Positions 1-32,000 are shown, counted from the first letter of the stretch. The stretch is DNA of 32,000 bases from Candidatus Saccharimonadota bacterium (GCA_963677765.1 OY782392.1:60001-92000), one strand, 5' to 3'. Notes: generated from the sequence alone by a model not told the origin. Numbers and translations are program-made.

Positions 1-363
1 ATCCATAGAAGCTTTAGTAGCATTTTTTATATCCCCAATTGTTTTCCATCAAACTATTCAAAATCATGCTATAACAACAGTAAGTAGAACAAAGAAAAAA
101 TTAACAGTGTTAGCTGAGTATGATAAAGCTTTATCAATTGCTGAAATTTCTCTAGATTGAATATCTTGATATATTTCTCTTTTTAATGTCTCTTGATCAA
201 TTCTTAATTCTTTTAATTCAGTTAATATAAACCTTTGAGTCCAATCTATTTCTTCTGGAACTAAAACTTCAGTATCAGAAGAATCAAATCCATTTATATC
301 AGCTGAAAAACAAAAAGAAAAAGAAAGAAAAAAAGCAATCAAAACAAAAAGTATTTTTTTCAT
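1..363 (-). CDS. Hypothetical secreted/membrane-anchored protein (3' end runs off the window)
   Basis: ATG at 363-361. Signal-peptide-like N-terminus MKKILFVLIAFFLSFSFCFSA. The 'stop' of the supplied ORF (TGA, 66-64) reads as Gly, and the frame stays open to position 1 (...LLTVVIAGFGIVGWKTIGDIKNATKASMD). Confidence 0.6.
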
Positions 364-376
364 ATATTTTTAAAAT

Positions 377-961
377 TTATTTAATATTAGTTTTATTATT
401 AGAATGTCATGTATAATAATCAACTATAGGGTTGCAAAAATTATAAAATCAATCTAATAATTTATAGTTAGGTTCATTTGTATTTTCTAAATAATTTTTT
501 TTGAATTCATCTGGTTTCTTATCAAGAATTCACATTATTAAATCATGATATTTTTTTGGAATTATATAACTATCATCAGACTCATAACAAACATCTTCAT
601 TTTTTAATTTAATATAAGCTGTAAAATAACTATATCAATCTTGTTTTTGTTTTATATTATCTGTAACATCTATCATTTCATAAGCAAGTTCCCTTTTTGA
701 AATCATTTCAAACTCTTCATCACTTACTACTAATCAGTAACCATTAACAAAACAGTTATTACATTTTTTTATATCTAGAAAAACACCATTATAACATGTT
801 TTTTTATCCTCAAAAGTTATTTCAATCGTAGGAGTCCAAACTCTTTTATATCATTGTAATTCTAAATATATCATATCTTCTTCTGATATTTCTCTATTTA
901 AAGTAGAGTTCCAACCAGATGCAGATAATAAAGATCAGTATCAAAATATTACTTTTTTCAT
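377..961 (-). CDS. Gamma-glutamylcyclotransferase / ChaC-AIG2-like family protein (194 aa)
   Basis: Code-25 translation MKKVIFGYGSLLSASGWNSTLNR... carries the N-terminal [VI]FGYGSL motif of the GGCT/ChaC fold and a later RELAYE segment. ATG at 961, TAA at 379-377, length divisible by 3. Contains several in-frame TGA codons. Confidence 0.65.
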
Positions 962-1165
962 TATAAATTATTACTCAAAAAAATAAAACATAAAAACACT
1001 TATTAGTTTTTGATTTGAAACCATAAAACTATAAGTGTGTTGCTCAAAAATACAAGAACAATATATCTATTAAGAATAAAAAAACAAAAGTTTTTATAAA
1101 ATTTAAATTTTGTTTTTTTTATAATATATTTAAAATATAAATATTAAGATGTTATCTATCTAAAT

Positions 1166-2215
1166 ATGGAAGAAATAAAATTTAGAGATAAATTAGAAAG
1201 ACAAAGATTTGATAATTTATACAATGAGAAATGACATCTTTTGACAAAAGACTTAGAACTATTAATAAAAAATGTTATAGTTATTTTTAAGAGGCATTCA
1301 AATGATGAGTCATACTTAACATTAGCACTAATATATTGAATGCTATACTTTTGAATTATAGATAAAAACCATAATATTATAAAAAAATCAGATTCAGAAA
1401 AAATAAAACTTATTAAATTAAGTTTTAAATATGAAATGGAATGAGATTATAAAAAATTTTTGGATGTAGTATTAGAAATGGAAAAAGATTTATTTCTTTT
1501 CAAAACTGTTATTAAATATTCTATTTTGTCTTTTGAAAAGAAATTTATAAAAATAGCTTCAAATCAAGAAAATTATTATAAATCAATATGATATGTATTA
1601 CCATACCTTACATATATTGAATCACCTTTCCTTGGTTTTTTCCAAGATATATATTTTAAGAAGGTTTATCCTAAAAAATATGAAAAAATAAGAAAATTCT
1701 ATAGAGAAAGAGTTGATAGAATAGAATTTCCTTGAGAGCATATGTTTACAATGGTAAATAATCTTACAAATATAATGATGCAATCAGAATCATTTTGAAA
1801 TATTAAAGTAAGAAGAAAAACATATTTTAGTATATATAATAAACGTATAAGAAAAAAAGGTAATACAAGTATGGATAATATAGGTATAAGAGTAATTTTT
1901 CCTGATAAAGAAAATTTAGAAAAATTTGTTAAATTATTTGAAGAAAAATATGTTTTTATAGAAAAAAAAGACTATATAGAAAAACCTAAAGAAAACTGAT
2001 ATAAAAGCATACACTTCAAATACATAAGTCCGTATAGAGATTCTCAAGTATTAGTTGAGTTACAATTAAGAACACTAAAAATGGATAAAGAAATTCATTC
2101 AACTGATATAATAAGCCATTTTAGCTATACTTTAAACCAAAATAAATGGTCTAAAAATTTCAAAGAAATACAACAATGATATATCTATACATCAAAAATA
2201 TTAGAGATTAAATAA
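1166..2215 (+). CDS. RelA/SpoT-homolog (RSH) protein: degenerate HD-like N-terminal half plus intact (p)ppGpp-synthetase domain, no TGS/ACT C-terminal region (349 aa)
   Basis: All four synthetase motifs are in frame: RRKTYFSIYNKRIRK (RxKxxxSxxxK), DNIGIRVIF (DxxGxR[IV]), ENGYKSIHF (GYxSxH, with G encoded by TGA) and VELQLRT (ExQxRT). The segment FQDIYFKKVYPKKYEKIRKFYRERVDR resembles the HD-SYNTH linker of long RSHs. ATG 1166, TAA 2213-2215. Confidence 0.8.
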
Positions 2216-2227
2216 TTATTAGAAAAA

Positions 2228-3949
2228 GTGAAACATTTAAAGGTAAAAATAAAAAATTTAGAGTTTGATTGAGAAACTATATTAAAGGATATAGATTTTA
2301 CACTAAATAAAACAGATAGAGTTTCTATTGTATGATCTAATTGAGCATGAAAAACTACACTATTAAAATTATTAACATGAGAAATAAAATGATATGATTG
2401 AAGTATAGATAATGTATGAAATTTAACTTTATGATATCTAAAGCAAATACATAGTGATAATGATAATAAATTAGTTAGAGAAGAATTAAAAGAAGCATTT
2501 ACAGATATAATAGAAATGGAAAAGTCTTTATCTATCCTAGAAGAAAAAATGTGAGAAGAACCTGAAAATATTCAAATAATAGAAGACTATACATCAATGC
2601 TTGAACAGTTCAATAATATTTGATGAAATGACTTTAATAACAAAATCCACAATGTAGCAAATTGAATATGAATTTTTGAATTATTAAATAAAAAATTAAA
2701 TGAAATAAGTTGATGACAGAGAACAAAAGTTGCACTAGCAAAAGTATTATTGGAATCTCCTGATATATTATTCTTGGATGAACCAACTAACTTTATAGAT
2801 ATGTGAAGTGTTGAGTGGTTAGAAAGCTTTTTACAAAATAAATGGAAAAGTTGATATGTAATAATTTCTCATGATAGAGAATTTTTAGATAAAACATGTG
2901 ATAAAACATATGAAGTTCAACCTAAAAGATGAATAACATATTATCATACAAACTATACATGATATTTGGCAGAGAGGGATAAAATAGAAAAGAAAAAATT
3001 AGAAGATTATAAAAGAGAGCAAGAATTTATAGACAAAGAAGAAAAATTAATCAATAGATTTAGAGCTTGAAGTAGAGCTTGATGGGCAAAATCAAGAGAA
3101 AAGGCACTAGAAAAGAGAGAAGTTATTCAAGCTCCTTTTATAGCTAAAAAACCAAAATTCTTTTTTAGCTTTACTTGAGAAGTACCAGAAAAAGTTCTTA
3201 GTTTTAAGGAGTGTTTTATATGAAGAGAAGAACCTTTGTTTTATATAAATGAAGTATATTTATATAAAAAACAAAGGATAGGTATAGTTTGAGAAAATTG
3301 AGTTTGAAAATCTACATTTTTAAAAACTATTATATGACAATTAGAAATTCTTGATTGATTTTATAGTAAAGGAAAATGAGTTAAGTTTTGATATTATTCA
3401 CAATTACATGAGGAATTAGATTTTAATCTAACAATAAGACAAAATTTTGAAAAAGCATGAATTAATTACCCTGAACAAAATCTTATTTGATTACTAAGTC
3501 ATTATCTTTTTGAAAGAGAAGATTTAGATAAAAAAGTTAGTGATTTATCTTGATGACAAACATCTAAACTACTATTTGCTATATTATGACAGAAAGAATA
3601 CAACTTACTAATACTTGATGAACCAACTAATCACCTAGATTATGATACTAGAGAAAGCTTAGAACAATCATTAAAAGAATTTAACTGAGCAATTCTTTTT
3701 ATATCTCATGATAGATATTTTGTAAATAAACTAGCTACAAATATATGGTTTATAGATAATAATGAATTATCTGTATCTTACTGAAACTATGAAGATTATA
3801 AATTCAAACAAGAACACAATATAGATATGGATATGAGTTTATTTGATGAAGAAGCACAATTAAATCTTGTATTAGAAGAAAAATTATGAGAAAAACAATT
3901 CAAAAGACTAAAAGATAAATTTAGCTGAAGAAAGCATAGAAGGAAATAA
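2228..3949 (+). CDS. ABC-F family ATPase (two ABC cassettes, no TM domain; Uup/YheS/EttA-like translation factor class), 573 aa
   Basis: Two Walker A motifs, GSNGAGKTTLL (2331-) and GENGVGKSTFL, in which most or all Gly are TGA. Two LSGGQ signatures, two Walker B motifs (ILFLDEPTN, LLILDEPTN) and a K/E-rich inter-cassette linker. GTG 2228 is the first plausible start after the in-frame TAA at 2213-2215. TAA 3947-3949. Confidence 0.9.
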
Positions 3950-4017
3950 AAAAGCCTTGAAAAAAAATTTTTTTATATAAAATAAGTAAGTTATTTAAAT
4001 ATTTAACAATAAAAAAT

Positions 4018-4548
4018 ATGAATTTATACCATGATATACCATTAGGTAATGAAGATTTTTCTGAAATTAATGCAGTTGTAGAAATACCAAAATGAAGTAA
4101 AGTAAAATATGAATTTGATTATAAAACAGGTGCTGTATGGGTAGATAGAGTTGGAAAAACTCCTATTGATTATACTTTTAATTATTGAGATTTACCTCAA
4201 ACATGGAATGAATGAGATAATGATCCATTAGATGTAATTATCTTATGTACTCAACCATTACATCCAGGAACTGTAGTTCCACTAAGAGTTGTTGGTGGAT
4301 TAAAAATGATAGATTCATGAGAAGATGATTACAAAGTATTAGCTGTTGCTGATGATAAATACTATTCTGATGTTAATGATATAGAAGATGTTAACAAAAA
4401 AGAATTAGAAGATATAGAATATTATATGTTACACTATAAAGATTTACATGGTAAAAAAGTAGAACTTAATGGTTGGGATAATAAATCAACTGCTCAAGAA
4501 ATATTAAAAAAATGTAATGAAGATTACAAGAAAAAATTCAATAAATAA
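4018..4548 (+). CDS. ppa: Inorganic pyrophosphatase (family I), 176 aa
   Basis: Translation ...VVEIPKGSKVKYEFD...DGDPLDV-like (NEGDNDPLDVIIL)...VVGGLKMIDSGEDDYKVLAV is the classical soluble PPase signature. ATG 4018, TAA 4546-4548. Confidence 0.92.
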
Positions 4549-4730: not shown

Positions 4731-4994
4731 ATGTATATGGAAACTAAAAAATTATTCATTGGAGGTTTATCTTGGGGGTTAGATTGGCAAGAAATCAAAG
4801 ACGTATTTAAAGAATACGGAGAAGTTGTTTTCGTTAAAGTTATCAAAGATAGAGAAACTGGAAAATCTAAAGGTTTTGGTTTTGTTGAATTTGAAAACTT
4901 AGAAGATGCTGTTAAAGCTAAAGAAGCTATGGACGGTGCTGAAGTTGATGGTAGAACAATTAAAGTTGATTTTGCTGTTGAGAAAGAAGCATAG
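4731..4994 (+). CDS. RRM-type (RNP-1/RNP-2) single-domain RNA-binding protein, 87 aa
   Basis: RNP-2 LFIGGL and RNP-1 KGFGFVEF are both present. Intact ORF even under the standard code; TAG stop 4992-4994. The start may be ATG 4731 or ATG 4737. All 9 Gly are GGN and there is no TGA. Confidence 0.9.
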   Translation: MYMETKKLFIGGLSWGLDWQEIKDVFKEYGEVVFVKVIKDRETGKSKGFGFVEFENLEDAVKAKEAMDGAEVDGRTIKVDFAVEKEA

Positions 4995-5732: not shown

Positions 5733-6971
5733 TTAGAACTTAATTTTAAAAATAGTATATTCTCATAATTTACTATCCACATTTATTTCCCATCAATATA
5801 TTTCTGATATCTTTTTTACAATTGATAATCAAATTCAATATCATTTTGTATTTCTAGATTTATCAGCTTTATAAAACCTATCCCATATATGAGATAAATC
5901 ATTATTACTAATTCATATTCAATTATCTTTTATATAAAGTTCTGATCCTTTATAATTTATATCTATTATTCATTTATTATTAGAATATTTTATAGCATTT
6001 CAAACTATATTTGATAAAAATATAAATAAATAATTTTTATTTGATTTTACAACAATATTTGATCATATATTTATATTAACCTTAATTTTTTTATCATTTA
6101 TTTCTTTTTGATAATTGGAGATTACTTCATTTATTAAATCAAGTAATTTATTACTTGATTGTGATTTAATATGACCTATATCACTAAGACTTATTAATCA
6201 ATCAATTAATCAATTAAGTTTATTAGCTTCATTTTTTATTTCTTTTATCATTGATATATCTCACTTATTTAACTCAAGCATTAGTTGAGAATTAGAATCA
6301 ATTATTGATATCGGAGTTTTTAATTCATGACCAGCATTATGAATAAAATTTTTCATATCTTTTATATTTTCTTCTACTGGTAAAAATATTTTATCAATAA
6401 ATTTTAATCATATAAAATAGATAAAAAAAGAAAAAAATAAACTTATCATAGTATAAAAAAACATATCATTTATATAATCAAAAAAACCATATCAATGTTT
6501 TTTTATTAAAACTAATTTATTTCAATTATTTAATTTTAATTTACTAAAATAATAAGAATCCTTATCATAAATTTTATTGTAATTTCATTCAGACAGAATT
6601 ATTTTTTCTAATATATTATATTTTATATTTTCTTTTATATTTGAAAATAATACATTATTATTAGAGTCCAAATAAATATAATTTAAAAGCAATTTTGGCA
6701 TATCTAGATTTTTCATTGATCAATCATCTATTTTTTTCATCATATTATGACCATCGAATCTAAAATTCCCTACTCTTAATATATCATTTAATGTAATACT
6801 TCATTTTTCTACAGAAGTTATTACATTAGAAAAAGATCTATAATCATTATTTTTAATTTGAAAATATTTAGAACTAAAAAAAACTAATCAGAATACAAAA
6901 ATAACCAAAAACACTATAACAGAAAAAGTTATAGTTAATTTAGTTTTTAATATCTTTAAATTTTTTGACAT
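5733..6971 (-). CDS. Sensor histidine kinase (two N-terminal TM segments, HisKA + HATPase_c), 412 aa
   Basis: H-box FIHNAGHELKTPISII, N-box LSNIVGNAIKYS, G1 DNGIGI, F-box WDRFYKAD and G2 GYGIGLSIVKKI all lie in one frame under code 25. ATG 6971 is 3 nt after the response-regulator stop. TAA 5735-5733. Confidence 0.9.
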
Positions 6972-6974: not shown

Positions 6975-7634
6975 TTAATTAATTAAAAATCAAAATCATT
7001 TTTTTGTTTCTATAATATCTTTTCAAAGTTTTTTTCTTAAATATCAGATATAAACATCAATAGTTTTACTAAACATAAAATCTCATTCCCACTCTCACCA
7101 TACATTTTCATAGATTTGTTGTCTAGATAATGATATTCACTTATTTTGCAACAAATATTTCAATAAATTAAATTCTAAATTTGATAATTTAATCTCTTTT
7201 CAATCCTTTTTTACCTCATGTTTTTGTAAATCTAATTCTATATTATCTTTTGATAATATACTTGATTTATTTATAAGTTTTCTTCTCAATAAAGCATTTA
7301 TCCTAGCTAGTAGTTCATTATACTCAAATGGTTTTACTAAATAATCATCAGCTCATATATTAAGTCAATTAACTATATCATCATTAGTTCACATTGATGT
7401 TAACATTATTATAGAGACATCTTTTCATGAATCTCTTAAGTCTTTACATATTTCTAGTCATGAAATATTTGGTAAATTAATATCTAATATAATTGCATCA
7501 TAAAACTTTGTTTTTGCCTTGTACAATCAATCTTTTCAATCAAGAGCTACATCTACAAATATATCTTTTAGAGCAAAATACCTAACTATATTTCTTGATA
7601 GTATTTCGTTATCTTCAATTATAAGTATTCTCAT
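6975..7634 (-). CDS. OmpR/PhoB-family response regulator (REC + winged-helix), 219 aa
   Basis: MRILIIEDNEIL...AIILDINLP...IIMLTS...GADDYLVKPF is the receiver domain. LSNLEFNLLKYLLQNKG...VWGEWEG...TIDVYIGYLRKKL is the trans_reg_C domain. ATG 7634, TAA 6977-6975. Confidence 0.92.
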
Positions 7635-7711: not shown

Positions 7712-7743
7712 AAAAGCTAGATTTTAGAATCTAGCTTTTTTTT
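7711..7743 (-). terminator. Rho-independent terminator after the LTXXQ protein gene
   Basis: 13-bp stem aaaaagctagatt / aatctagcttttt (7711-7723 / 7728-7740) with loop ttag, and A/T runs on both sides. Confidence 0.75.
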
Positions 7744-8218
7744 ATCTTTCCATATGTCATCTCATTTTTCCTTTACCCATTTTATTTCATTTAAAACTAT
7801 TCATTAATTCAGTTTCTTCAGTAGTTAACTCTTCACCATTTTTATATTTTTCCATAACTACTTTCATTTCTTCTCTTTTTTGCTCCATTTCTTCTTTTGC
7901 TGCTTTCATTTCAGCTCTTTTTGTAATTATTTCTTGTCTAATAACTTCTTCTTCACTTGTTAAATTATCTCAAGCTAATAATTTATCTATAACTGTTTCT
8001 CTAGTTTCTCTTTCTAGCTCTTTTTCAGTTCTAATTTCTTCAAAATAAGCTTTTTTTTCTTCTGTAGTCATAGACTCAAATTCAGATATTTGTTCATCAG
8101 TTAAATTCATTTTTCACATAAATTTCATACCTCTTTCTGAAAAGTCTGCATTTACATATGCAACACTAGATAAACCAATAGTTGCCATAGCTATAGTAGC
8201 CAATACTTTTTTGTTCAT
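7742..8218 (-). CDS. Secreted Glu/Lys-rich helical protein with LTXXQ-type motif (CpxP/Spy/ZraP-like), 158 aa
   Basis: Signal peptide MNKKVLATIAMATIGLSSVAYVNA. Mature part contains MNLTDEQISEFE (LTxxQ), later LTSEEE and LTTEET repeats, and a basic tail. ATG 8218, TAA 7744-7742. Confidence 0.6.
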
Positions 8219-8329: not shown

Positions 8330-9529
8330 TTATTCAAATCTTAATGCATCAATTGGTCTAAGTTTTGCTGCCTTATAAGCTGGTAATAATCAAAAGAATA
8401 AACCTATAAAAAGAGAAAAACAGAAACTTAATATAACAGAATTAACAGAAATAATGGAATTAATAGAAAAATAATTCAATATAAAAACTACAATATAACT
8501 AAATATAATTCATATAAATCATCATAAAATACTTAGACTTGATGCTTCTGTTAAAAATTGTAATATTATATCAATTTTTCAAGCTCAAATAGCTTTTCTT
8601 ATTCAAATTTCTTTAGTTCTTTCTGTAACTGATACTAACATTATGTTCATAACTCAGATACCTCATACAAGTAACGATATTCATGCAATTCATGCAAGTA
8701 GCATAGTTAAAGTTTCAGTAATAGAACTAAATTTTTCTAACATTTCAGCTTGATTTCTGATATTATAAGGGAGACTATTGGGATTTATAACATCTAAATA
8801 ATCTTGTAAAAAATTATCTATTTCAGTTTGAATAATATCTACATTATTAGAATCAGTAACTGAAACAATTAATTGAGAATAATATTTAGTTCACTTAATT
8901 CTAACTCATGCAGTAGTAATAGGTATAAAAACTGAAGAATCATAACTAGAGTTTTCTTCTATTACTCATATAACTAAAAAAACATTATTTCATATTTTAA
9001 ACGATTCTCAAATTGGATTATTTCAACCAAATAACTCATTTACTACATCTTGTCATAATATAGCAACCTTATCTAAAGAGTTAATATATTTTTCACTTAT
9101 ATTGTTTCAAAAAATAATTTCAATATTTCTTATATTTAGGAAATTATTATCAATTCAATATATTGTAGAGCTCATATCATTAGCTCAATAAACTAACTGT
9201 CAATTTGTAGATATGATAGGTAATATTCAATCAACTCATGAAATATTATTTTTCATTTCAGTTAATAAATTATCATCAAAAATATCAGTAGACTGAGTTC
9301 TATCTCTCGATGATCAAAACCCTCATCATGGAGAAATAGTCAAAATATTAGTTCACATTTCTTCAATTTGATCAACTATAGACTGACTACTTCAATTTCA
9401 AATTGCAGTTAATATAATTACAGAAGAAACTCATATAATAATTCATAGCATACTTAGACTAGATCTTAATTTATTTGCCCTTATTGAAATAAATGAATTT
9501 ATTATATTTTCTATTATTGTGTAAATCAT
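8330..9529 (-). CDS. ABC transporter permease, MacB/FtsX-type (MacB_PCD + FtsX domain), 399 aa
   Basis: N-terminus ...IRANKLRSSLSMLGIIIGVSSVI, a large extracytoplasmic domain, then C-terminal [28 protein letters not shown]...LLPAYKAAKLRPIDALRFE, which is canonical MacB/FtsX. ATG 9529, TAA 8332-8330. Confidence 0.9.
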
Positions 9530-9532: not shown

Positions 9533-10201
9533 TTATATTTTATCAACTATTAATCAATCCTTTATTGAAATATGTTTTGATGCATATTCATCAATTTCTT
9601 TTTCATGAGTAATCAAAATTATAGTTTTTCATTCTTTATTCAATTCAGATAATAAATCCATAATTTCAATTCAAGTCTTAGTATCCAAAGCTCAAGTTGG
9701 TTCATCAGCTAATATAAATCAAGGATTAATAGCAAGAGCCCTAGCAATAGAAACTCTTTGTTGTTGTCATCATGAAAGTTCATTTGGTTTACTATTTATC
9801 TTTGTATCTAGTCATACTTTTTTTAATGCTTCTAGAGCAATTTTTTTTCTTAATTTCTTGTTAACACCTTGGTAAGATAATGGTAACATTACTTGTTCTA
9901 ATACACTCATTCTTGGGATAAGATTATAACTTTGAAAAATAAAACCTATATTCTTTCATCTTATTTTAGATAAATCTGATTCTTTTTTTCAAGATACTAT
10001 TTTATCATCAAAATAATACAATCATTCTGAAGCTATATCAAGCATTCAAATAATATTCATAAGAGTTGATTTTCAACTTCAACTAGGTCACATTATAGAT
10101 ACAAAATCTCATTTATTTATTTCTAAATCTATTCATTTTAATACCTCAATATTATTTTCTCACATTTTATATCTTTTTTTTATTCATTGTAATTTTATCA
10201 T
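9533..10201 (-). CDS. ABC transporter ATP-binding protein, MacB/LolD-type, 222 aa
   Basis: Walker A GPSGSGKSTL (all Gly are TGA), Q-loop FIFQSYNL, signature LSGGQQQRVSIARAL, Walker B ILADEPTGALD and H-loop ITHE. By my hand count 19 of 21 Gly codons are TGA. ATG 10201, TAA 9535-9533. Confidence 0.93.
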
Positions 10202-12331: not shown

Positions 12332-12360
12332 AAAAACAATAACTAAATTAGTTATTGTTT
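12326..12360 (-). terminator. Rho-independent terminator after the bPH-like membrane protein gene
   Basis: 12-bp stem aaacaataacta / tagttattgttt (12334-12345 / 12349-12360) with loop aat. A T-run follows on the minus strand. The stop codon (12350-12348) lies inside the hairpin. Confidence 0.75.
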
Positions 12361-13409
12361 TCTTGCAATAATATATACATTTCTCTTATTTCATTTTTTG
12401 TTTCATCATCACCATTTTCAAAAATTTCTTTTATTCTTGATTCATGATTTAATATATATTTTCTTAATTTTATTTTATTTTCTACAGTATCAATATTATC
12501 TATTCATATTTCTGATTTAAATTTTTTTAATAATACATTAACTTCTTTTTCCATTAAAGCTAAATCATTATTTAAAACCTTCTGGCTTTCAGATAAAGTT
12601 TTTACAGGACTACCAATATAATCCATTGTCATTTCTCAATTATCCTTTTGATCTCATTCTGATAAAACAATTATATCTCCATAGTTGAAAAAAGAACCTA
12701 ACAATCATCTATATGAACTATTCATAGTTTTAATTTTATTGGCATTCATACTTTGACTATCTCACAGGATTCATCTTTGGTTATAAAAAATAATTTCTCA
12801 TGGAATAATTATTTTAAAATCCATTTCTTGATTAATCATTTTTTTCAAATAACTATAAAACAATAATGTTTGTATTATAAGTAAAAAACTATTAACTAGA
12901 CCAACTCAAAAACCTAATGCTCATCATCAAATAAGAGAAGCAAGTCATGTAAAAGAAGTAAATATACTAAGAGCAAATAATACAACAAATAAAAATATTG
13001 TTTGATTAAAAAATCTAGTAAAAACAAGATCACTTTCTTTGCTTTTTTTTATAGCTGAATGAACATCCTGAATATAAGGAACACTTCATTGTATTTTATA
13101 AAACCTATATATAAATAATATAACAATAAAAACCCAGTAAATAATATTTATTGATAAAAATCAAGCTACAATAGCAGGAATTAATTCAATTTTAGAGTTA
13201 GAAAAAGTTAAAAGATATACATTTGCAAATCATATAGCTATAACAAATAATACTCTCCAAGAATGTATTATACTATAAATCCAATGTCTTTTTACTAATA
13301 TAAGAAATCTAACTCCATCATTAGCTAGTTTTTCTAATAGTTTTGTATCTCAAGCAACATCAAAAGATTTGAATATAAATTCAAATGCTCATCTAAAATT
13401 AAAAATCAT
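12348..13409 (-). CDS. Multi-pass membrane protein with a C-terminal bacterial-PH-like (bPH/YdbT-like) segment, 353 aa (hypothetical)
   Basis: About four hydrophobic helices (e.g. WRVLFVIAIGFANVYLL, AIVAGFLSINIIYWVFIVILFIY, IFLFVVLFALSIF, GFGVGLVNSFLLIIQTLLF). These are followed by ...IIFYNQRGILGDSQSMNANKIKTMNSSYRGLLGSFFNYGDIIVLSEG, which resembles bPH_2 domains. ATG 13409, TAA 12350-12348. The family call is tentative. Confidence 0.5.
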
Positions 13410-21123: not shown

Positions 21124-21963
21124 ATGAATGATATAATAAACTTAAATAATATGGATTATCAAAGATATATAGATTTAGCTATAGAATGAACGATCTCATA
21201 TGGACCTAAACTAATTTGAGCTTTACTTGTATTGTGGATTGGTTTCAAAATAGTAAAAATGATAGATAAAGCTCTAGTAAAAATTATGGATAGAGCTGAG
21301 CTAGATCCAATGTTAGAATCTTTTATAAGCAGCCTAGTTATAATTATACTAAAAGTGCTAGTAATAATTAGTGCTGCTTGAATTGTTTGAGTTCAAACTA
21401 CTTCATTTGTAGCTATGTTAGCTGCAGCATGATTAGCAATAGGTATGGCATTATCTTGAACTCTTCAAAACTTTGCAGGTTGAGTTATGATATTATTTTT
21501 AAAACCTTATAGTATTTGAGATTATATAGAAGCTGCTTGATATAGCTGAACAGTAAAGGAAATTCACATATTTAATACTGTTTTAATTACTGCTGATAAA
21601 AAAGTAATAATAATACCTAACTCTGATTTAAGTAATTCTTCAATGACAAACTATTCGGTAGAACCAATAAGAAGACTAGACTTACAAGTATGAGTTAGTT
21701 ATAGTGATGATATAGATTTAGTTAAATCTACTTTGGATGAAATAGCAAAATCAGACGAAAGAGTTATAGTAAAAGATTGAATAACTATTGCATTAAATGA
21801 ATTATGAGATAATGCTGTTATTTTTAATTTTAGAGTTTTTTGTAAATCATGAGACTACTGGGCTTTAAGATGAGATTTATTAGAAAATATCAAAAAAACA
21901 TTTGATAAAAAAGGTATTTCATTTCCTTTTCCACAAAGAGATGTTTATGTTTATAACAAATAA
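21124..21963 (+). CDS. mscS: Small-conductance mechanosensitive channel (MscS family), 279 aa
   Basis: TM region ...LIGALLVLWIGFKIV..., pore helix [44 protein letters not shown], and the beta domain GTVKEIHIFNTVLITADKKVIIIPNS. ATG 21124, TAA 21961-21963. Confidence 0.9.
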
Positions 21964-21993
21964 AAAAAAGAAGATTTTAAATCTTCTTTTTTT
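21962..21993. terminator. Bidirectional terminator between mscS and the convergent desaturase gene
   Basis: 11-bp stem aaaagaagatt / aatcttctttt with loop tta, with A-run and T-run flanks. It overlaps both stop codons. Confidence 0.8.
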
Positions 21994-22966
21994 ATTTTAT
22001 TGTTTCTCAAGTTTTCAAAGTATTATATATTTCTTTTAATGAAACAAAAAAAGACACATCATGATATTTTATATTATTAGTATGACAATATTTTTTTACT
22101 ATCTTTGAAAGTTTAAGTATATTTCATCTAGATACACTAGGAAAAATATGATGTTCAACTTGTTTATTTAATCATCAAAAAATATGATTAATAATAAGTC
22201 ATCATTTTACATTTCTAGAAGTTCTAGTTTGTAAATCAAACCATGAGTATTTTGTTACTTCATTTCAATCAATAATTTCCATTCATATATGATTAACCAT
22301 AAAAGAAAAGGCCAAATGAACTCAAACTAAAACATATATAGCAAACAAAGAAAAAATAGTAATAACAATTCAATAATTCAAAAATAAAACCAAAGGTAAT
22401 ATAGCAAAATAAACAAGAGACAATAAAAGTTCTAAATATAATTTATTTTTTAGTATATGTTTGTAAGACAAATAAATTAAATTAAAATAAAGAATAGAAG
22501 TAACAATCCAAAACAAATAAACTTTATGTTTATCAAAAAATTTACTTTTTCATTCATTTTTAGTAAAAATTTCATCATAATCTCTAATATCTGTATCATG
22601 AATATCACTATTAGTAAAAGTATGATGTTCTACATTATGTTTTTTTCTCCACCATGAAGCAGATAATCAAATTAACATATTTCATGTAATAAGTGAAAAA
22701 AATGAATTAGTCTTATTATTTTTAAAATATTGATTATGTATCAGATCATGAGATATAAATCATAATTCAACAGTAAGTATATAATAATATATTATTACTA
22801 AAAAAATATTAACCTTATCTATAAAAAATAATCATAAAAAATATAATCCTATAAAAATAATTAAATTTTTTATTCAATACAAAGGAGTAGGTTTTAATAA
22901 TCAAGAGTTTGAAACTATTTTTCTTAATTCAGAAAAATGAGCATCATAGATTTTTTTATCGTTCAT
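21992..22966 (-). CDS. Membrane fatty-acid desaturase family protein (three His boxes), 324 aa
   Basis: His boxes HDLIH, WWRKKHNVEHH and QVEHHIFP are in canonical order, separated by hydrophobic spans. ATG 22966, TAA 21994-21992. Confidence 0.85.
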
Positions 22967-22972: not shown

Positions 22973-24241
22973 TTATTTAATTCAAGTAAAGTTATTTGAA
23001 GTATCTACTTTTATAAAGATATTATCTGTATCTAGTATATTAGTAGTAGAAAAAAACATATTTTCTTGTAAAAAAGAGTTATGATTTTTATATCAAGACA
23101 TTGCTAAGTCATCTGTTAATATAAAGTCTGATTTTAATGCTATATTTAATATTTCATCTTTTAGATCATTAGGTAAATACATATGACCTACCATTATTCA
23201 TGATTTTATAAGACTTTTTGATAAAAAATAATCAAATAGTTCTATATTTTTATTTAAGTAATCAATATTATCATCATATATTAATACACTATCATGAGAA
23301 TCAACATTTCAATCTCAGTGTCATGGAAAATGCTTAGCATAAACTAAAACTCAAGTCATATTTGATGCCCATATATAAGAATCTATAAGTTTTTTATATT
23401 CTTCAATATCACTAGAAAAACTTCTAGACAATCATGTTATAACAGGATTTCACAAATCTAAATCCAAAACCAATCAATGAGTATTTATTCATACATCATC
23501 TAAATTTTTAAGTTTTATAAATGCTAATATATCTAAAAAATCTTGTTTATTATTATCTGAAATTTTTTTATATGACTCATTAATAGATTCATTAGATGGA
23601 TAATAAATTCATGAGATTAAAGAATCTAATATAGATTTTTCTAATTCATCTAATTTTTTATATTTATTATAAATATAATCATTAGAATAATAAAAACTTC
23701 ATTTAACACTAGAGAAATCCTTATATCTATTTATAAATCATCACTCCTGGTCAATAAACAATAAAATATCTGGATTTATTTCTTTTATAAGAGATATAGA
23801 TTTTTTCATTATATCAAAATCAATATTTTCTTTATTTCTAAAAAGAAATACACTAAAACTATTTTTTATTTTTTCTTGATTATTAAGAATAACTTCCTTG
23901 TTATAATCAAAAGAATTATCAAATCTTATAATTATATTAGAGTAACTATAATCAGAATATTTAGATAAATTAAAGTCATTTAATTCATAAAAATAATCAT
24001 TTAATGAATTTTTTATATATAATAAAATCTCTTTGTTCTTATTGCTATCACTTAGTTTCGATTCAATTAACGAAACTTTATCTAAAAAACTCATTATTCT
24101 TGTTTTCTTATAAAAAAATGTCTTTTTTTCCAACATTTGATAATAAGAATTCATTATATTATTTATATCATTCTTTGTATATGCTCATACATTAATAAAT
24201 AAACACATACTAATAATAAATGATATTAATATTTTTTTCAT
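22973..24241 (-). CDS. Secreted glycoside hydrolase family 3 protein (NagZ-like beta-N-acetylhexosaminidase), 422 aa
   Basis: Extends the supplied ORF 23741-24154 in both directions under code 25. Signal peptide MKKILISFIISMCLFINVGA from ATG 24241. LLFIDQEGG (GG are TGA) and KHFPGHGDGNVDSH are the GH3 N-domain signatures. TAA 22975-22973. Confidence 0.8.
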
Positions 24242-24242
24242 A

Positions 24243-26339
24243 TTATAAATTATTTAAAAAATTATCTAAATCTATAACTTCTACTCATAAGTCATTTGCT
24301 TTTTTAAGTTTTGATCAAGCTTTTTCTCAAGCCAAAAGAAAATCAGTTTTTTTTGTTACGCTTGATACAAACTCTCAACCTGATTTTTCAAGTTTTTCAA
24401 CTAAACTATCTCTAGAAACTTTTTGTCATTCTAATTCAAAACTTCATGTTATACACACTTTTTTGTTATTGAAAATTGAATTAGTATCAATATTTATATA
24501 TTCATAATATTTTATATTTAATATATCTACTAATTGTGTTAGAATTATTTTATGAGAATCTGAATTAAAATAATTAACAATATTTTTTGCTAACTCTGGT
24601 CATATATCATTCAAAGATATTAAATCATCTTCTGTCAAAGAAAAGTCCAAAATAGAGTTTTTATCTGTAAAAAATCTAGAAATTATTTTAGAAGTTTTTT
24701 TACCAACTCATGGAATTCATATAGCTGATAAAAAAGTAGTAATATCAACTTTTTTAGATTTTTCAACTCATTCTATAAGATTATTAACTGATTTTTCTTT
24801 ATATCATTCCAAAGATAAAATTATATCCTTTTTATCTTTTATATTGAAAATATCAACTAAGTTATTTATAATACCTAATTCTAAAAACAACTCTACTTGC
24901 CTCTCTCAAAATCAATCAATATTAAATCAAGACTTTCAAACTGAATATGTTAACATTTCAGAATGTTTAGCAGGACAATCAATATCATTTGGACAATAAT
25001 ATCTTACTTTATCTTCATCTTTTTTAACTGGAGTTTTACAAGAAGGACAAAATTCTGGAGTATGTATTTTTTCTAAATCATTTCTATTAAATTTTTCTCA
25101 TTTAAAAGTTATAAAATCTCAATTATCTACAACTCATGTAATTTTTGGAATAACTTCTCAAGCTCTTTTTATAAAAACATAATCACCTAATCTTACTCAA
25201 AGTTTCTCTATTTCATCATAGTTATGTAAAGTGGCTCTTTTAACTATTACTCATCAAATATTTATAGCTTCAAGATTAGCAACAGGTGTTATTGTTCATG
25301 TTCTTCATACACTGTGATCTACTGAAATTATTTGAGTAGTAAATATTTCTGCTGGAAATTTATAAGCAATTGCATATCTAGGATGATGAGCAGTCCATCA
25401 AATATCTGACCATAAATCTATAGAATTTACTTTTATAACTAGACCATCTATTTCAAAATCTATATCTTTCTTAAAAGAATCAATAGTATCAATAGAATCA
25501 ATAACTCATTCAATTGAATCAAATATTTCAAAATAACTAGATATTTCAAATCATAGTTTTTCTAAATCTAATATAACATCATAATAATTAGAAATATTTT
25601 CTCTATGTCTAAATTCATCAAAATTAGCTAAATCATAAGCATAGAATTTTAAATTTCTTTCTTTAGTAATTTTTATATCTTTTGTTCTAACACTTCAACT
25701 AGCAGCATTTCTAGGATTTGAAAAAACTTTTTTATTTTCTTTTATAGCTTTTTTATTCAGAGATTCAAAAGAGCTAATAGGCATTACAACTTCTCATCTA
25801 ACTTCTAAATGTTCTTTGTAATCAATATATTTAGGTATATTATCTATACAAAAAATATTTTGAGTAACATCTTCTCATTCAATACCATTTCACCTAGTAA
25901 TAGCTTGTACCAATTCTCATTTTTTATAAATAAGCTCTATTCATAATCAATCAAATTTGTATTCCAAAGTATATGAAACATTATTTATTTTTTCGTTATC
26001 AATATTTTTTATAACTCTATCATTAAAATCTCTAAGATCAATTTCATTATAAGTATTATCAAGACTAATCATAGGTCTAGAATGTCTTACTTTTTCAAAA
26101 CTAGATTCTATTATTTCAGCTCAAACTCTAAGAGTTTGTTTGTAATTAGGATTATATTTATCTTCTAAAAACTCTAATTTTTTAAAAAGCAAATCATACT
26201 CATTATCAGAAATAATAGGAGATTCTTTATTATAATAAAGGTCACTATGATATTCAATAATTTTTTGTAAATTTTCTAAATCTTCCCTATTTAAATCATT
26301 ATTATCTATATTTAGATATTTTTTTGATAATTCTAACAC
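24243..26339 (-). CDS. ligA: NAD+-dependent DNA ligase, 698 aa
   Basis: N-terminal Ia domain ...YHSDLYYNKESPIISDNEYDLLFKKLEFLE, adenylation motif EYKFDGLGIEL (KxDG) and Zn finger CPSC...C-x-C. HhH region GIPGVGKKTS and a C-terminal BRCT-like segment ITGSFE. GTG start at 26339 (the first start candidate after the in-frame stop). TAA 24245-24243, 1 nt before the GH3 start. Confidence 0.9.
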
Positions 26340-26686: not shown

Positions 26687-27149
26687 ATGTAAGTTAGTTC
26701 AAACGAGCTACATCTTACATTCCTTAAAATGTTAACTTCTACTCTGTCAGAATGGTTTTTGCAAAAATCCAGCAAAACACCTCAAATAGATTTAGCTTTG
26801 ACTAAATCAACAAAAATAAAAACAAAAAGGGTTGTTAGTTGTATTCATTTAGAAATTAACATAGATTGATTTTTAAATGAATACAACTAACTCCAAGAAA
26901 AAAAACAAAAATACGAAAAAAATTTCGAAAAACAAAAACAAAAGAGAATGGTGAATAGCTCTCTAAAAATTACCCAAACAGAGTTCAAGTTAGTCGTGTA
27001 AACCGACAAGAAAAGCAAGGATTAGTTTTTCAAAACTGATCTTTATTCCCCTTAGCATTGAACAAACACACTTTTTATCGCTTTGGATGTGAATTTAGAC
27101 ACCACACCGCTTAAGTACTATTACCCAATATGCTTAAGCTCTTTTTTTT
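26687..27149 (+). ncRNA. Candidate novel structured ncRNA, about 460 nt (or about 505 nt if the second terminator is used); class unknown
   Basis: Promoter upstream and tandem terminators downstream, with no credible ORF under code 25. Hairpins: nested 26687-26720 (atgtaag..tagttc-aaac-gagcta..cttacat), 26753-26771, 26789-26808, an 18-bp perfect stem 26834-26851/26874-26891, 26914-26927, an 11-bp stem 27019-27043, and 27109-27139. ATTACCCAA is repeated at 26969-26977 and 27120-27128. The region looks locally GC-richer than its flanks by eye. Confidence 0.45.
27109..27149 (+). terminator. First of two tandem intrinsic terminators ending the candidate ncRNA
   Basis: gcttaag (27109-27115) pairs with cttaagc (27133-27139) over a 17-nt loop, followed by tcTTTTTTTT (27142-27149). 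Confidence 0.5.
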
Positions 27150-27151
27150 AC

Positions 27152-27262: not shown

Positions 27263-28234
27263 ATGTTAGAAAAAATAAATGAATTTAAAAAACTAATTGA
27301 AAACTCAAAAAATATACTACTTATAAATCATATAAGAATGGATCCAGATGCATTTTGAAGTTTGGCAGCTTTTTATTTAATAATGAATAAATACTGAAAA
27401 AATGTTAGAGCAATAAATGATGAAAACACACCTGAAAGCTTTAATTTTTTATGAGCAGAAAATATTATAGAAAAAAATTTAGATATAAAATCGTACAATC
27501 CTGATTTAATAATAAGTTTTGATGCAGCTAGTATATGACAATTATGAGAAACATACAAAAATAACAAAGATATATTTGATAAAAATAATTTTGTTGTAAT
27601 TGATCATCATATGACGAATGAAGGATTTTGAAAATTAAATATAATAGATTCAAAAATGTCCTCTACATGTGAATTACTATTTTATATACTTGAAAAAATA
27701 GATTTAGTTAAATATATAGAAAAAAAAGAAGCAACATTATTAACTGCATGAATACATACTGATACAAATATATTTTACAATTCAAACACAAACAGTTCTA
27801 CTTTAATTACTGCGGCAAAATTAATGGATTTATGAGCTGATTTTAGAGCTCCAATGTATAATTTTTTTCAAAAATCAAGTTATGAAAAATTAAAACTGAC
27901 ATGACTTATTTTTCAATCATTAAAAAAATCCGAAGATTGAAAAATAATATGGGTTAAAATAACAAAAGACTTCTTCGAAAAAACTAATTCAAGTGATGAA
28001 GATATTAGTTGAATTATAAATAGAATGATAAATGTCGATTGATGTGAAATTGCGTTTATTATATATGAAATCTGAAATCTAGTAAAAGCTAGTTTTAGAT
28101 CAAAAGAATATAGTGTTTGAGACCTATGTGCTAGTTTCCCTAATTGATGATGACACAGACTAGCTGCATGATTTAGAAGTGAAAAAGATATAAATACTAT
28201 AGAAAAAGAAATTTTAGATAAAATAAAATTATAA
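27263..28234 (+). CDS. DHH/DHHA1-family phosphoesterase (NrnA-like oligoribonuclease / pAp phosphatase), 323 aa
   Basis: Motifs ILLINHIRMDPDAFGS (DHH motif I/II region), VVIDHH, TAGIHTDT and C-terminal NGGGHRLAAGF (GGGH, all three Gly are TGA). ATG 27263, TAA 28232-28234. Confidence 0.85.
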
Positions 28235-28239
28235 ATATA

Positions 28240-28267: not shown

Positions 28268-28300
28268 TATTTAAATTTTTAATTAATTATAAGTAAAATA

Positions 28301-29113
28301 ATGGTAAATTGAACTATTGTTATCCCTGCATATAATGAAGAAAAAAGAATAGAAGAAACTATACTAAGAGCAAAAGCTCAAAACACATGACATAGCTACA
28401 ATATAATAGTAGTAGATAATTGAAGTAATGATAAAACAAAAGATATAGCACATAAAGCTTGAGCTGAAATAGTTGAAGAAAAAACTAAATGAGTAAAGTT
28501 TGCAAGATTAAAATGAATAGAAGCTGCTAGAGACTTATATAATTCAAGAATAATAATGCAATTGGATGCTGACAGTCATATATGACCTAATTGGGTTGAA
28601 GAACATTTAAATCAATTTGAAGATGAAAATGTATGAATAGTATGATGAAGTATTAAATGGACTAATAGAAGTTTTAGTACAGCTGCTTTTATTCACACTT
28701 TAGATTTTTTTAGAGGTAGAGTTATATCTATAACAGATTTAAAAATAAAAAGTTACTTTGAAAAAAGAAAATTCTGGATAGAAAAATGAGTAATACCTAT
28801 TCCATGAACTAATATGTCATATTTATCTGAATTAGGTGCATGTAGTTCTACAGTTTTATGATGAACTAGCTCTTTATGAGAAGACTATTTCAAAGCTACT
28901 AGAATATATCAAAATCATATACTAAATAATCCTGAGTGAGAAGTCAGATTAATAGATAATAAAAATATATTAGTAAATACTCCTTCTAGATGAGATCAAG
29001 ATTTTGTAAATTTCTTAATATCAAAATATAAATACAAAAAATCTAATACTTGTGAAGCAATAAAAAAATGAAAATTAAATGATGAAAGTTGCCAAATGAC
29101 AGATTCTAGATAA
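28301..29113 (+). CDS. Family 2 glycosyltransferase, 270 aa
   Basis: GTIVIPAYNEEKRIEETI, IIVVDNGSNDKT and IMQLDADS (DxD) form the GT-A/GT2 signature. ATG 28301, TAA 29111-29113. Confidence 0.85.
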
Positions 29114-29152
29114 TATAAATACCTAAAAAATAAATTCCTAAAAAAATCTAAT

Positions 29153-30577
29153 ATGAAAAAAACAAAAATAATAACTACCCTTTGACCCGCTACAGATTCA
29201 AGAGAAACTATAAAACAATTATATTTAGAGTGAGCAAATGTAGTTAGATTAAATTATTCTCATACAAATTATGAATATTTTGGAGAAATAATAGATAAAG
29301 TACAGGAATTAAATAAATCATGAGAAACTAATTTAGGTATATTAACAGATACTAAAGGTCCTGAAATAAGAACAAAAGCAATAGAATGAAAAATAGAATT
29401 AGAATTATGAGAAGTTTTTATATTAACTACATTATCTAATGAAGATAATATAACACCAAACAATAAAAAAGTTGTAGTTTGTGACTATGAATATATAGTA
29501 ACAGACTTAGATATATGACATATTGTAGACATTGATACAGGATTATTAAAAGCTAGAGTTATAGAAAAAAAACCATGAGAACTAATTTGTGAAGCATTAA
29601 ATTCTCACAAAATTTGATCAAAAAGACACTTAAATTTACCATGAGTTAAACTTCACTTACCTTGAATAACAAAAAGTGATAAAAATGATATAGAATTTGC
29701 AGTAAAAAAATGAACTGATTTTATAGCATTATCATTTGTTAGAAATAGAGAAAATATATTAGAATTAAGAGAATATTTAGAAGAGTTAAATGCTACAAAA
29801 TGAATTCAAATAATATCAAAAATAGAAAATCAAGAAGCTCTAGATAATATTGATGAAATAATAGAAGAAAGTGATTGAATAATGATAGCCAGATGAGATT
29901 TATGAGCTGAGGTTCCATATGAAACTCTACCTATAATTCAAAGAGAAATAGCATCAAAATGTAAATATGCATGAAAATATTTCATAGTTGCTACACAAAT
30001 GCTAGAATCAATGATAGAAAACCCTATCCCTACTAGAGCAGAGGTTACAGATATATTTAATGCAGCAATGCAAAAAGCTGATTGTACAATGCTATCATGA
30101 GAAACAGCAGCTTGAAAATACCCTATAGAAGCTGTAAAAACTATGTCTAGAGTCCTAGAATATACTGAAAAACAAATAACATATAAACATGATAAGTACT
30201 TCATAAAAGACTTATGAGTTCATGAAGATAAAAAACAACTAATAAAAAATGCTGTTAATACTGCAGAAAATGTTTGAGCAAAAAATATATTAGTTTTTAC
30301 TAATTCATGATTTATGGCAAAAACTATATCAGCATTTAGACCAAATTTACATGTATATTCTTTTACATTTAGTGATTTTCTAAGAAAAAAATTGACTATT
30401 TTGTTTTGATTAAAAACTTTTTTAATTGAAAATAAATCAAATGAACAAAACTTAGAAGAAGCAATAAAAATACTAAAAGATAAATCATTAATGAAATCAT
30501 GAGAAAAAATAGTTACTATATATGGTATAGAGAGAAAATGAAAAATAATACCAAGTATACAAGTAATTGAAATATAA
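29153..30577 (+). CDS. pyk: Pyruvate kinase, 474 aa
   Basis: [60 protein letters not shown] and MLSGETAAGKYP all lie in one frame under code 25. ATG 29153, TAA 30575-30577. Confidence 0.93.
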
Positions 30578-30606
30578 AAAAACTAGGATTAAAACCTAGT
30601 TTTTTA
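30576..30606. terminator. Bidirectional terminator between pyk and the convergent 139-aa gene
   Basis: Stem aactagg / cctagtt (30581-30587 / 30595-30601) with a 7-nt loop, flanked by an A-run and a T-run. The TAG stop of the minus-strand gene lies in the right arm. Confidence 0.7.
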
Positions 30607-31015
30607 TTTTTGAGAAAATTACTCTATTAATTTTTGGTAAGATATGATCAACTTTTATATCACCTGATATAACACAATTAACTTTTAGAGAAAAAAGTTT
30701 ATTTATAATTTTTTCATTTATTATATATAAACTCTCTTGACCATAAGAAACTTTATTATTAATAAACAATATTACAACTACATTATTTACAAGTATATTT
30801 TTATAAAAAGTTTCATCTTCTAAACTATCAGCATCAATAATAAAAATATTTAAAGAAGTTATATCTAGTTCCAATAAAGAATATTTTTCAATTTCTAGAT
30901 AAGTAACAGCAATGCTAATATAATTTTTCATACTAACAAAGGCACTTTCTACATTTTTTTCAAAATCATGAGATACATTTAAATTATCCCCTATATATAG
31001 ATTTACTTTTAACAT
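30596..31015 (-). CDS. Hypothetical protein, 139 aa (alternating beta/alpha pattern loosely reminiscent of a receiver/flavodoxin-like fold)
   Basis: Intact in any code (no TGA), with a TAG stop. It is the only gene in the window with a canonical SD: GAGGAGGaattaATG (31016-31027, minus strand). A possible TTGACT -35 lies at 31074-31069. The fold suggestion rests only on KVNLYIGDN / NIFIIDADS / VVVILFINN strand-like segments. Confidence 0.6.
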   Translation of the reverse strand: MLKVNLYIGDNLNVSHDFEKNVESAFVSMKNYISIAVTYLEIEKYSLLELDITSLNIFIIDADSLEDETFYKNILVNNVVVILFINNKVSYGQESLYIINEKIINKLFSLKVNCVISGDIKVDHILPKINRVIFSKIKN

Positions 31016-31082
31016 TAATTCCTCCTCTTTTTTTAAAAGTTTATTTATAGTATATATTTTATAAATATAGTCAAGAATAAAA

Positions 31083-31110
31083 AAATAGACTAAATTAGTC
31101 TATTTTTTTT
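31083..31110 (-). terminator. Rho-independent terminator after the RND permease gene
   Basis: Stem aatagacta / tagtctatt (31084-31092 / 31096-31104) with loop aat, and A-run/T-run flanks. The stop codon 31097-31095 is inside the hairpin. Confidence 0.7.
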
Positions 31111-32000
31111 ATTCTATCAGTTTTTTTGTATAAAAACCAACTATAATATAATGATGGGACAACAAACAATGTCATTGTTGATCATGCTATCAATCAAAAT
31201 ACAATTGTAAATCATAATCAAGCCCAAAATTCATCTTGTAAAGCTAATGGTAAAACTCAAAAAACAGTTGTAAGAGTAGTAACTATTATTGGTTGTAATC
31301 TAGATTTTCAAGCAGAGATTACACTATGAATATTATCTATTCCTTTTTCTAAGTTTCTATTAATTCTATCTATTAATATAATAGCATCATTAACAACAAC
31401 TCATGTCATAGCAATAAATCAAATCATAAAAGTAATACTATATGGATTTCAAGTTAAAAATAATCAAATATTAACTCAAATAGTAGCAAGTATTACTGAA
31501 TATAATACTATTAATGGTTGTCTGAAACTATTAAATTGAAATACTAAAATAGAGAATATCAAAAACATTGATATAAACAATGACGCAATTGTAGATTGTA
31601 TTAAATCTGCATTTTCTTGATTTTCTCATCATTTTTCATAAGAAATTCATTCAGGGAAATTATAAGTAGAAGCATACTCATCAACCTTTGGTTGTATATC
31701 TGTAGATAATACTCAAGATTCTAAATCAGCTTCAACTGTAATTGTAATTTTTCAATCATCTCTAGTAATAGAAGTAATTGCCTTTGTAAATTCATAATCT
31801 GCAAAATCTCAAACTCTAAGTTTACCAGACCTAGTATTTATCATCAGATTTGATATTTCATCTGGACTTAATTCGTCTTCAAAGTCAGCAATTTTTAAAA
31901 CTATATCATTATCTTCATATTGAGACTTTATACTTCATGCTTTTAATCAATTTGTATATAAATATACTTCATTTACTATATCAGATGGAGTTAGTCATAA
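31095..32000 (-). CDS. RND (AcrB/HAE-type) efflux permease, C-terminal about 300 aa (5' end outside the window)
   Basis: ...LIQSTIASLFISMFLIFSILVFQFNSFRQPLIVLYSVILATIGVNIGLFLTG...FIAMTGVVVNDAIILIDRIN...SRLQPIIVTTLTTVFGVLPLAL is the typical TM10-12 region of AcrB-family pumps. The frame is open to position 32000. TAA 31097-31095. Confidence 0.85.

Follow-up and report, generated by a model that had tools for sequence, protein, structure and literature searches.

Introduction

The genetic code in which UGA specifies glycine and only UAA and UAG terminate translation (translation table 25) is known from SR1 and Gracilibacteria (GTDB class JAEDAM01, orders BD1-5 and Absconditabacterales). The reassignment has been described for this clade together with its decoder, a glycine transfer RNA (tRNA) with anticodon UCA and standard glycine identity elements (PMC8629427). 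The release factor 2 gene, prfB, was undetected in all BD1-5 genomes then available, and release factor 1 was present in all those examined (PMC6851277). Proteomics of a BD1-5 enrichment yielded 97 peptides unique to the glycine translation of UGA, versus 3 for tryptophan (PMC4032931). In Absconditabacteria, a variant was reported in which CGA and CGG have changed meaning to tryptophan on top of UGA to glycine (Shulgina and Eddy 2021, PMC8629427). Table 4, in which UGA is tryptophan, is used by Mycoplasmatales, Entomoplasmatales and some endosymbionts. Here we analyse a stretch of 32,000 nt with a GC content of 22.5% (GCA_963677765.1 OY782392.1:60001-92000; hereafter called the window), for which an earlier note, made from the sequence alone, had claimed that UGA is read as glycine throughout.

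Compared with table 25 genomes, the window shows no difference in kind. UGA serves as a glycine codon, the only stops are UAA and UAG, the source genome is small and AT-rich, the nearest proteins and the gene order come from Gracilibacteria assemblies, and the GC content is near the low end of the described range of 0.21-0.53 (PMC8629427). With table 4 genomes, the window shares the sense use of UGA and a reduced genome of low GC content, but it differs from them in that UGA columns are glycine and never tryptophan in structure partners, in that UGG alone means tryptophan, and in that UGA is used at the level of a glycine codon, not of a tryptophan codon. It resembles the Absconditabacteria variant in its super-lineage, in UGA as glycine, in the depletion of CGN codons and in the dominance of AGA; it differs in that CGA and CGG are absent from its approximately 9100 tallied codons and that its nearest named relatives are Gracilibacteria rather than Absconditabacteria. 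We consider it practically certain that the window comes from the chromosome of a bacterium of the Gracilibacteria (BD1-5) lineage that has a small genome and uses table 25, with UGA as glycine and UAA and UAG as the only stops. This code was already known, in the very lineage for which table 25 was defined, and the window holds nothing new on the code itself. The choice of table nevertheless has consequences: table 11 shatters every gene of the window, and table 4 puts tryptophan at about 5% of positions, catalytic glycines included.

UGA is a sense codon across the window

Open reading frames (ORFs) were counted from stop to stop, with a cut-off of at least 100 amino acids (aa). Table 11 yielded 12 such ORFs, amounting to 1457 aa in sum and at most 167 aa each. 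With TGA as a sense codon, there were 51 ORFs totalling 12923 aa, the longest of 1123 aa. As controls, we made the other two stops sense codons in turn: TAG gave 19 ORFs (2317 aa summed, longest 203 aa), and TAA gave 63 scattered ORFs (8856 aa summed), none longer than 341 aa. When ORFs were picked greedily without overlap, TGA being sense, the set comprised 28 ORFs, of which approximately 25 are confident genes. Together they cover 88.8% of the window, and each terminates at TAA (26 ORFs) or TAG (2 ORFs). The earlier note had counted the same 12 short ORFs under the standard code and had described about 30 long, packed genes ending in TAA or TAG once TGA is read through, and both statements hold. 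Gene calling under alternative tables, which it had proposed as a check, gave a coding density that collapses under table 11 and is high with TGA as sense. Pfam recognized ordinary bacterial domains in 20 of the 28 ORFs. For g1, g7 and g27, the ORF is the sole support, g27 being additionally conserved in a related strain.

The 28 ORFs contain 519 in-frame TGAs in 9439 codons (5.5%), as against 1.2% for the GGN codons summed and 0.6% for TGG. TGA represents about 83% of the glycine codons, and the TGA:GGN ratio is 4.6:1. A preprint, which lists JAEDAM01 genomes still mis-assigned to table 4, uses a 'glycine ratio' feature capped at UGA = GGN (10.64898/2026.05.24.727570). Code 25 results in normal amino-acid contents of 6.8% glycine and 0.6% tryptophan.

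If the standard code applied, these TGAs would be real stops in a decayed region, sequencing errors, selenocysteine codons or sites of programmed read-through, and nothing speaks for this beyond table 11 being the default. Against it stand the number of in-frame TGAs across the 28 ORFs and their placement on conserved glycine columns, protein lengths that agree with those of homologues, and the same TGA usage in the syntenic genes of independent assemblies. Selenocysteine is further contradicted by the alignments, in which TGA columns are not aligned with cysteine (12 of 2988 residues in the pyruvate kinase alignment described below), and by the presence of the codon, at 5.5% of the total, in nearly every gene, no search for SECIS elements having been made. 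Pseudogenisation and selenocysteine were rejected on these grounds, and we give the standard code in any of these forms a negligible probability. ORF structure is identical under tables 4 and 25 and cannot tell them apart.

TGA columns align with glycine

We took the independent evidence on the meaning of TGA from solved structures in the PDB, from cluster representatives and from Pfam. Seven proteins were written with X at TGA positions, and each was aligned to its best solved-structure partner. The residue facing TGA was glycine in 87 of 143 columns and tryptophan in none; GGN columns faced glycine in 15 of 23 cases and tryptophan in none, and TGG columns faced tryptophan in 5 of 12 cases and glycine in none. 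For individual proteins, glycine was found at 21 of 38 TGA columns between the ABC-F ATPase g4 and Escherichia coli YbiT (9njf), with no tryptophan, at 21 of the 31 aligned ones between LigA (g23) and E. coli LigA (2owo), at 14/19 for the ABC transporter ATPase g12 (5xu1), at 7/16 for the RND transporter g28 (MexK, 9xwg), at 6/13 for the response regulator g9 (1kgs) and at 3/3 aligned columns for the pyrophosphatase g5 (1twl), where tryptophan faced 2 of 3 TGG columns.

Pyruvate kinase (g26) served as the main test gene. An exhaustive search for representatives gave 149 new cluster representatives, and we kept the 137 with no more than 4 tryptophans, too few for a TGA-rich gene translated with code 4. 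Across these 137 sequences, the 24 TGA columns are 58.6% glycine, versus a background of 6.2%, and hold a single tryptophan in 2988 residues. The per-column glycine fraction is 0.59 for TGA, 0.56 for GGA and 0.62 for GGT, and the other codons with more than a few aligned columns have their standard meanings. Using a profile hidden Markov model built from those 137 representatives only, we then scored the protein with each of the 20 residues at TGA. Glycine reached 601.6 bits, 45 bits above the next residue, asparagine (556.6 bits), and 71 bits above tryptophan (530.1 bits); X scored 540.9 bits.

Ten TGA-rich proteins were also scored against Pfam twice, with glycine or tryptophan at TGA. Glycine scored higher in every TGA-containing domain, including PK (381.6 versus 323 bits), ABC_tran of g4 (154 versus 76.9), ACR_tran (169 versus 105.5) and MacB_PCD (131 versus 67.8). 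DHHA1 of g24 was detected with glycine and undetected with tryptophan, and the score of the LigA zinc-finger domain, which has no TGA, was the same with either. Two further checks that the earlier note had put forward, the residue found at TGA columns and the homology scores by code, thus came out for its claim that UGA is glycine.

The first 120 homologues of pyruvate kinase collected were nearly all code-4/25 relatives and would be circular as an independent test, so that we used them for the interchange of TGA and GGN alone. In 109 close relatives available in code-4 translation, the only residues at invariant glycine columns are W, corresponding to TGA, and G, corresponding to GGN. Such a W/G interchange is what one expects of synonymous codons.

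Motifs spelled with TGA

Conserved motifs are consistent with the column counts. The Walker A motif GPSGSGKST (10064-10090) is spelled TGA CCT AGT TGA AGT TGA AAA TCA ACT, and GSNGAGKTT (2333-2359) likewise has TGA in its glycine positions; in g4, both Walker A and both signature motifs contain TGA. GPTGVGKT of the Clp-type ATPase g15 (14934-14957) has one TGA, and the glycines of TTLGPAT and RGDLG in pyruvate kinase are encoded via TGA, as is that of GYKSIH in g3 (1997-2014). The glycine pair of IDQEGG in g22 (23738-23755) is TGA TGA, and GGGH in g24 (28145-28156) is TGA TGA TGA CAC. All the motifs named in the earlier note are thus present with TGA at glycines, except that the ABC signature it had reported as LSGGQ three times is LSGGQ twice and ISGGQ once, with the glycine pair TGA TGA in all three.

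Tryptophan is encoded by TGG in WIGF (g20) and WSKNF (g3), as had also been stated, and the glycine of WIGF is GGT. In g9, the sequence NVWGEWEG (TGG TGA ... TGG ... TGA) has tryptophan and glycine codons side by side; in the PDB sequence aligned to it, the first TGG faces W and the adjoining TGA faces S. In sum, UGA was found at glycine positions in all the conserved genes tested, it is the main glycine codon, and UGG stays tryptophan.

Code 4, the reading of UGA as tryptophan found in Mycoplasma, Spiroplasma and a number of insect endosymbionts, fits the low GC content, those genomes being likewise very AT-rich. It gives the same ORF structure as table 25, and it is the translation in which a large protein collection stores these genes. 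It was nonetheless ruled out by the column counts, with tryptophan at none of the TGA columns of the solved structures and once in those of pyruvate kinase. Tryptophan also falls 71 bits short of glycine on the independent profile and scores lower in every TGA-containing Pfam domain. Moreover, code 4 would require an implausible 6.1% tryptophan and 1.2% glycine, and it would place tryptophan inside Walker A, LSGGQ and RGDLG motifs. We regard it as extremely improbable.

Lineage and related loci

Among the matches listed, all the named close homologues of pyruvate kinase are from 'Candidatus Gracilibacteria bacterium'. Three Gracilibacteria assemblies share with the window the order ligA - gap - DHH gene - pyruvate kinase - RND transporter, namely GCA_041694155.1 (83% identity to the window in pyruvate kinase), GCA_028691535.1 and the oral Gracilibacteria HOT-871 (CP017714.1). 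Named homologues and gene order together argue for placement of the source in the Gracilibacteria/Absconditabacteria lineage, in agreement with the genome type that the earlier note had proposed.

We applied the same procedure to ten related loci. Their ORF coverage is 0-29% under table 11 and 75-92% with TGA as sense, and TGA makes up 49-86% of their glycine codons, with higher shares at lower GC. The TGA share is about 1% in the standard-code controls L001 and L002 (Pirellulales and a Patescibacteria genome). TGA-dominant glycine coding is thus characteristic of the clade and not of the source genome alone.

A large public protein collection contains a protein, P0001, that is identical to the pyruvate kinase of the window outside the TGA positions and has W at all 24 of these. 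This copy is encoded on an NCBI/ENA contig of 1,048,296 bp. The warning of the earlier note about automated pipelines was therefore justified. In this collection, most unnamed Gracilibacteria proteins have W at TGA, and NCBI-named entries alone carry glycine. A back-translation search starting from the W-bearing pyruvate kinase returned two distant standard-code loci and no close relative. It missed the close relatives because W at TGA positions had become TGG.

Decoding of UGA

By analogy with the lineage, a dedicated tRNA-Gly(UCA) with the usual glycine identity elements (G1:C72, C2:G71, G3:C70 and U73) would read UGA, and loss of release factor 2 would leave no competitor for UGA. A strong mutational bias toward AT would in that case make UGA preferred to GGN codons, which are GC-rich. 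This last step agrees with the relatives, in which the share of UGA among glycine codons goes up as GC goes down, and the window clearly illustrates how far AT pressure can drive a reassigned stop codon toward becoming the principal codon of an amino acid.

Several points weigh against reading UGA as glycine with table 25. Neither a tRNA(UCA) nor a release-factor gene was found in the window or in eight related loci (L001-L008). The sole tRNA detected by ARAGORN in the window is tRNA-Lys(CUU), with no tRNA gene in L001-L008, and Pfam found no release-factor domain in the window proteins, although 32 kb is too short to show genome-wide absence. The decoding machinery is thus inferred rather than seen. 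About 40% of TGA columns are not glycine in distant homologues, where they are mostly N, A, S, D or E; GGN columns show an equal proportion, and this share therefore reflects ordinary divergence. Two genes, g6 and g27, have no TGA and count against this reading only in that they are silent on the code. Lastly, for the source organism itself, the assignment of UGA to glycine rests on sequence data.

Codon usage and decoding accuracy

In the tallies of confident genes (approximately 9100 codons), the CGN box is nearly extinct, with no CGA, CGG or CGC and 2 CGT. The remaining arginine codons are AGA (218), the main one, and AGG (21). GGC, CTC, CCC and TGC occur once or twice each, and GGC and GGG add up to 5 codons.

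TGA is scarce in g5 and g6, which have 4 TGA and 17 GGN between them; the remaining genes have 512 and 88, respectively (Fisher p = 8e-11). The g6 gene has a GC content of 32% and a TAG stop. It is possible that UGA is avoided in these maybe highly expressed genes, or that they are of foreign origin.

The scarcity of TGA in g5 and g6 would also fit selection against a less accurate codon if decoding were ambiguous, i.e. if UGA were mostly glycine but a noticeable fraction were read as tryptophan or another residue, or terminated translation depending on context; wobble of tRNA(UCA) at UGG could also blur the two codons. The wobble potential of U34 was remarked on by Shulgina and Eddy (PMC8629427), and BD1-5 proteomics found single peptides with Trp, Ala, Asp and Lys at UGA, versus 40 with Gly (PMC4032931). 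Decoding fidelity is not measurable from sequence. The use of UGA at catalytic and nucleotide-binding glycines throughout the window nevertheless points to accurate decoding, and ordinary codon bias or foreign origin could also explain g5 and g6. We find ambiguous decoding very unlikely.

Together with the assignment of UGA to glycine, it is conceivable, if rather doubtful, that the lineage is at an advanced stage of code drift, with UGA nearly displacing GGN and the latter surviving mostly in a small number of genes that are either highly expressed or of recent acquisition (g5, g6 and g27). Because GGN is almost replaced and the CGN box has virtually disappeared, some of these codons may be unassigned or reassigned. 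CGA and CGG have been reported as reassigned in Absconditabacteria, and CGG in some Gracilibacteria.

Gene content of the window

The features of the window are collected in Table 1. Two genes start with GTG. In g4, the first ATG would drop the first Walker A motif. In g23, the first ATG, at 26072, would remove domain Ia (89 codons); 34 TGAs lie downstream of this ATG and at least one more upstream, and the LigA orthologue in L003 has 698 aa and carries Nlig-Ia. The syntenic orthologue of the large secreted protein g19 in L003 carries DUF8202.

The small gene g27 lies within a 467-bp insertion (30612-31078, mapped by blastn) that separates the pyruvate kinase gene from that of the RND transporter. 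L003 and L005 lack this insertion, and the stop codons of the two genes are 18 bp apart there. In the related strain L014, g27 is conserved as an intact ORF. Its lack of TGA possibly reflects expression-linked avoidance of UGA or a foreign origin.

Table 1. Features of the window. G and W denote scores obtained with glycine or tryptophan at TGA positions.
Feature	Coordinates	Strand	Support and codons
g2, hypothetical protein, 194 aa	377..961	-	ORF with TGA as sense; no Pfam match; 8 TGA, 3 GGN
g3, RelA/SpoT-type small alarmone synthetase-like	1166..2215	+	PF04607 RelA_SpoT, 61 bits; 9 TGA
g4, ABC-F ATPase	2228..3949	+	ABC_tran, 154 bits G, 76.9 W; 40 TGA, 2 GGN; GTG start
g5, inorganic pyrophosphatase	4018..4548	+	PF00719, 168 bits; 4 TGA, 8 GGN
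g6, RRM-type RNA-binding protein	4731..4994	+	PF00076 RRM_1, 91 bits; 0 TGA, 9 GGN
g8, sensor histidine kinase	5733..6971	-	HisKA and HATPase_c; 20 TGA, 6 GGN
g9, OmpR-type response regulator	6975..7634	-	Response_reg, 96 G/76 W bits; Trans_reg_C, 73 G/52 W bits; 15 TGA, 0 GGN
g10, hypothetical protein with hydrophobic N-terminal stretch, possibly secreted	7742..8218	-	ORF, no Pfam match; 4 TGA, 5 GGN
g11, MacB-type ABC permease	8330..9529	-	MacB_PCD, 131 G/68 W bits; FtsX, 72 G/32 W bits; 32 TGA, 4 GGN
g12, ABC transporter ATPase	9533..10201	-	ABC_tran, 108 G/59 W bits; 19 TGA, 2 GGN
g13, HlyD-family periplasmic adaptor	10214..12262	-	HlyD_3, 51 bits; 32 TGA, 2 GGN
g14, hypothetical membrane protein	12348..13409	-	ORF only; 17 TGA, 7 GGN
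g15, Clp/Hsp100-type AAA+ ATPase	13485..15257	-	AAA_2, 123 G/86 W bits; ClpB_D2-small, 38 G/21.5 W bits; 39 TGA, 5 GGN
g16, LigB-family extradiol dioxygenase	15419..16207	+	PF02900, 95 bits; 14 TGA
g17, pirin-family protein	16214..16906	+	Pirin and Pirin_C_2; 15 TGA
g18, hypothetical protein	16951..17343	-	ORF only; 4 TGA
tRNA-Lys(CUU), not a UGA decoder	17481..17556	-	ARAGORN; Rfam tRNA, 69.9 bits
g19, large secreted protein, 1109 aa	17653..20982	-	ORF; weak Cadherin match; 85 TGA, 20 GGN, 16 TGG
g20, MscS mechanosensitive channel	21124..21963	+	Three MS_channel domains, G > W; 15 TGA
g21, fatty-acid desaturase	21992..22966	-	PF00487, 106 bits; 17 TGA
g22, GH3-like glycosidase	22973..24241	-	Glyco_hydro_3, 41 bits; 16 TGA
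g23, NAD-dependent DNA ligase LigA	24243..26339	-	Pfam G > W; GTG start at 26339
Candidate structured non-coding RNA, ~460 nt	26687..27150	+	GC rise, conservation, compensatory pairs
g24, DHH/DHHA1 phosphoesterase, NrnA-like	27263..28234	+	DHH, 59 G/47 W bits; DHHA1, 31 bits G; 18 TGA
g25, family-2 glycosyltransferase	28301..29113	+	PF00535, 87 bits; 18 TGA
g26, pyruvate kinase	29153..30577	+	PK, 382 G/323 W bits; 24 TGA, 5 GGN, 0 TGG
g27, small gene, 139 aa	30596..31015	-	ORF, no Pfam match; 0 TGA, 3 GGN; TAG stop
g28, RND (AcrB-type) transporter, C-terminal part	31095..32000	-	ACR_tran, 169 G/105 W bits; at least 17 TGA; runs off the window

A candidate non-coding RNA next to ligA

The intergenic region adjoining ligA harbours a candidate structured RNA with a GC content of 26-35%, versus 12-18% in its flanks. 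A promoter-like TTGGAA/TATAAT pair is found upstream, and the 3' end consists of a hairpin followed by a T-run. The element is conserved beside ligA in three Gracilibacteria assemblies, and a scan with a 25-base pattern located it in six metagenome contigs; its counterparts lie at ~7593-8055 in L003, ~6275-6727 in L006 and ~7830-8227 in L008, and in L009-L014. In four related loci, another gene lies between the candidate RNA and the DHH gene (CitMHS in L006; gaps of 1.1-1.4 kb by blastn in L009, L010 and L013), and the element is therefore not simply a leader of the DHH gene. No match to the candidate RNA was found in Rfam 15 at E values up to 1, and the gap at 26.3-27.3 kb gave hairpin and terminator noise alone.

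Eight distinct sequences gave a consensus fold of 13 helices, one of them long-range, with 109 pairs in total and 96.7% of cells paired. We counted 31 compensatory pairs, compared with 13.1 +/- 2.2 in shuffles, of which 0 of 500 reach 31, and with 2-5 when the partners were slid. As read from the alignment, base pairing between the invariant loops AAAAAUCCA and AAGGAUUA would be possible.

Upstream of ligA, at ~26460-26570, conserved boxes stand out in poorly conserved intergenic DNA, with matching stretches in L003, L006 and L008. They comprise the palindrome TTTTGTATACAAAA and a second copy of GTATAC, and may represent a putative operator or promoter element for ligA.

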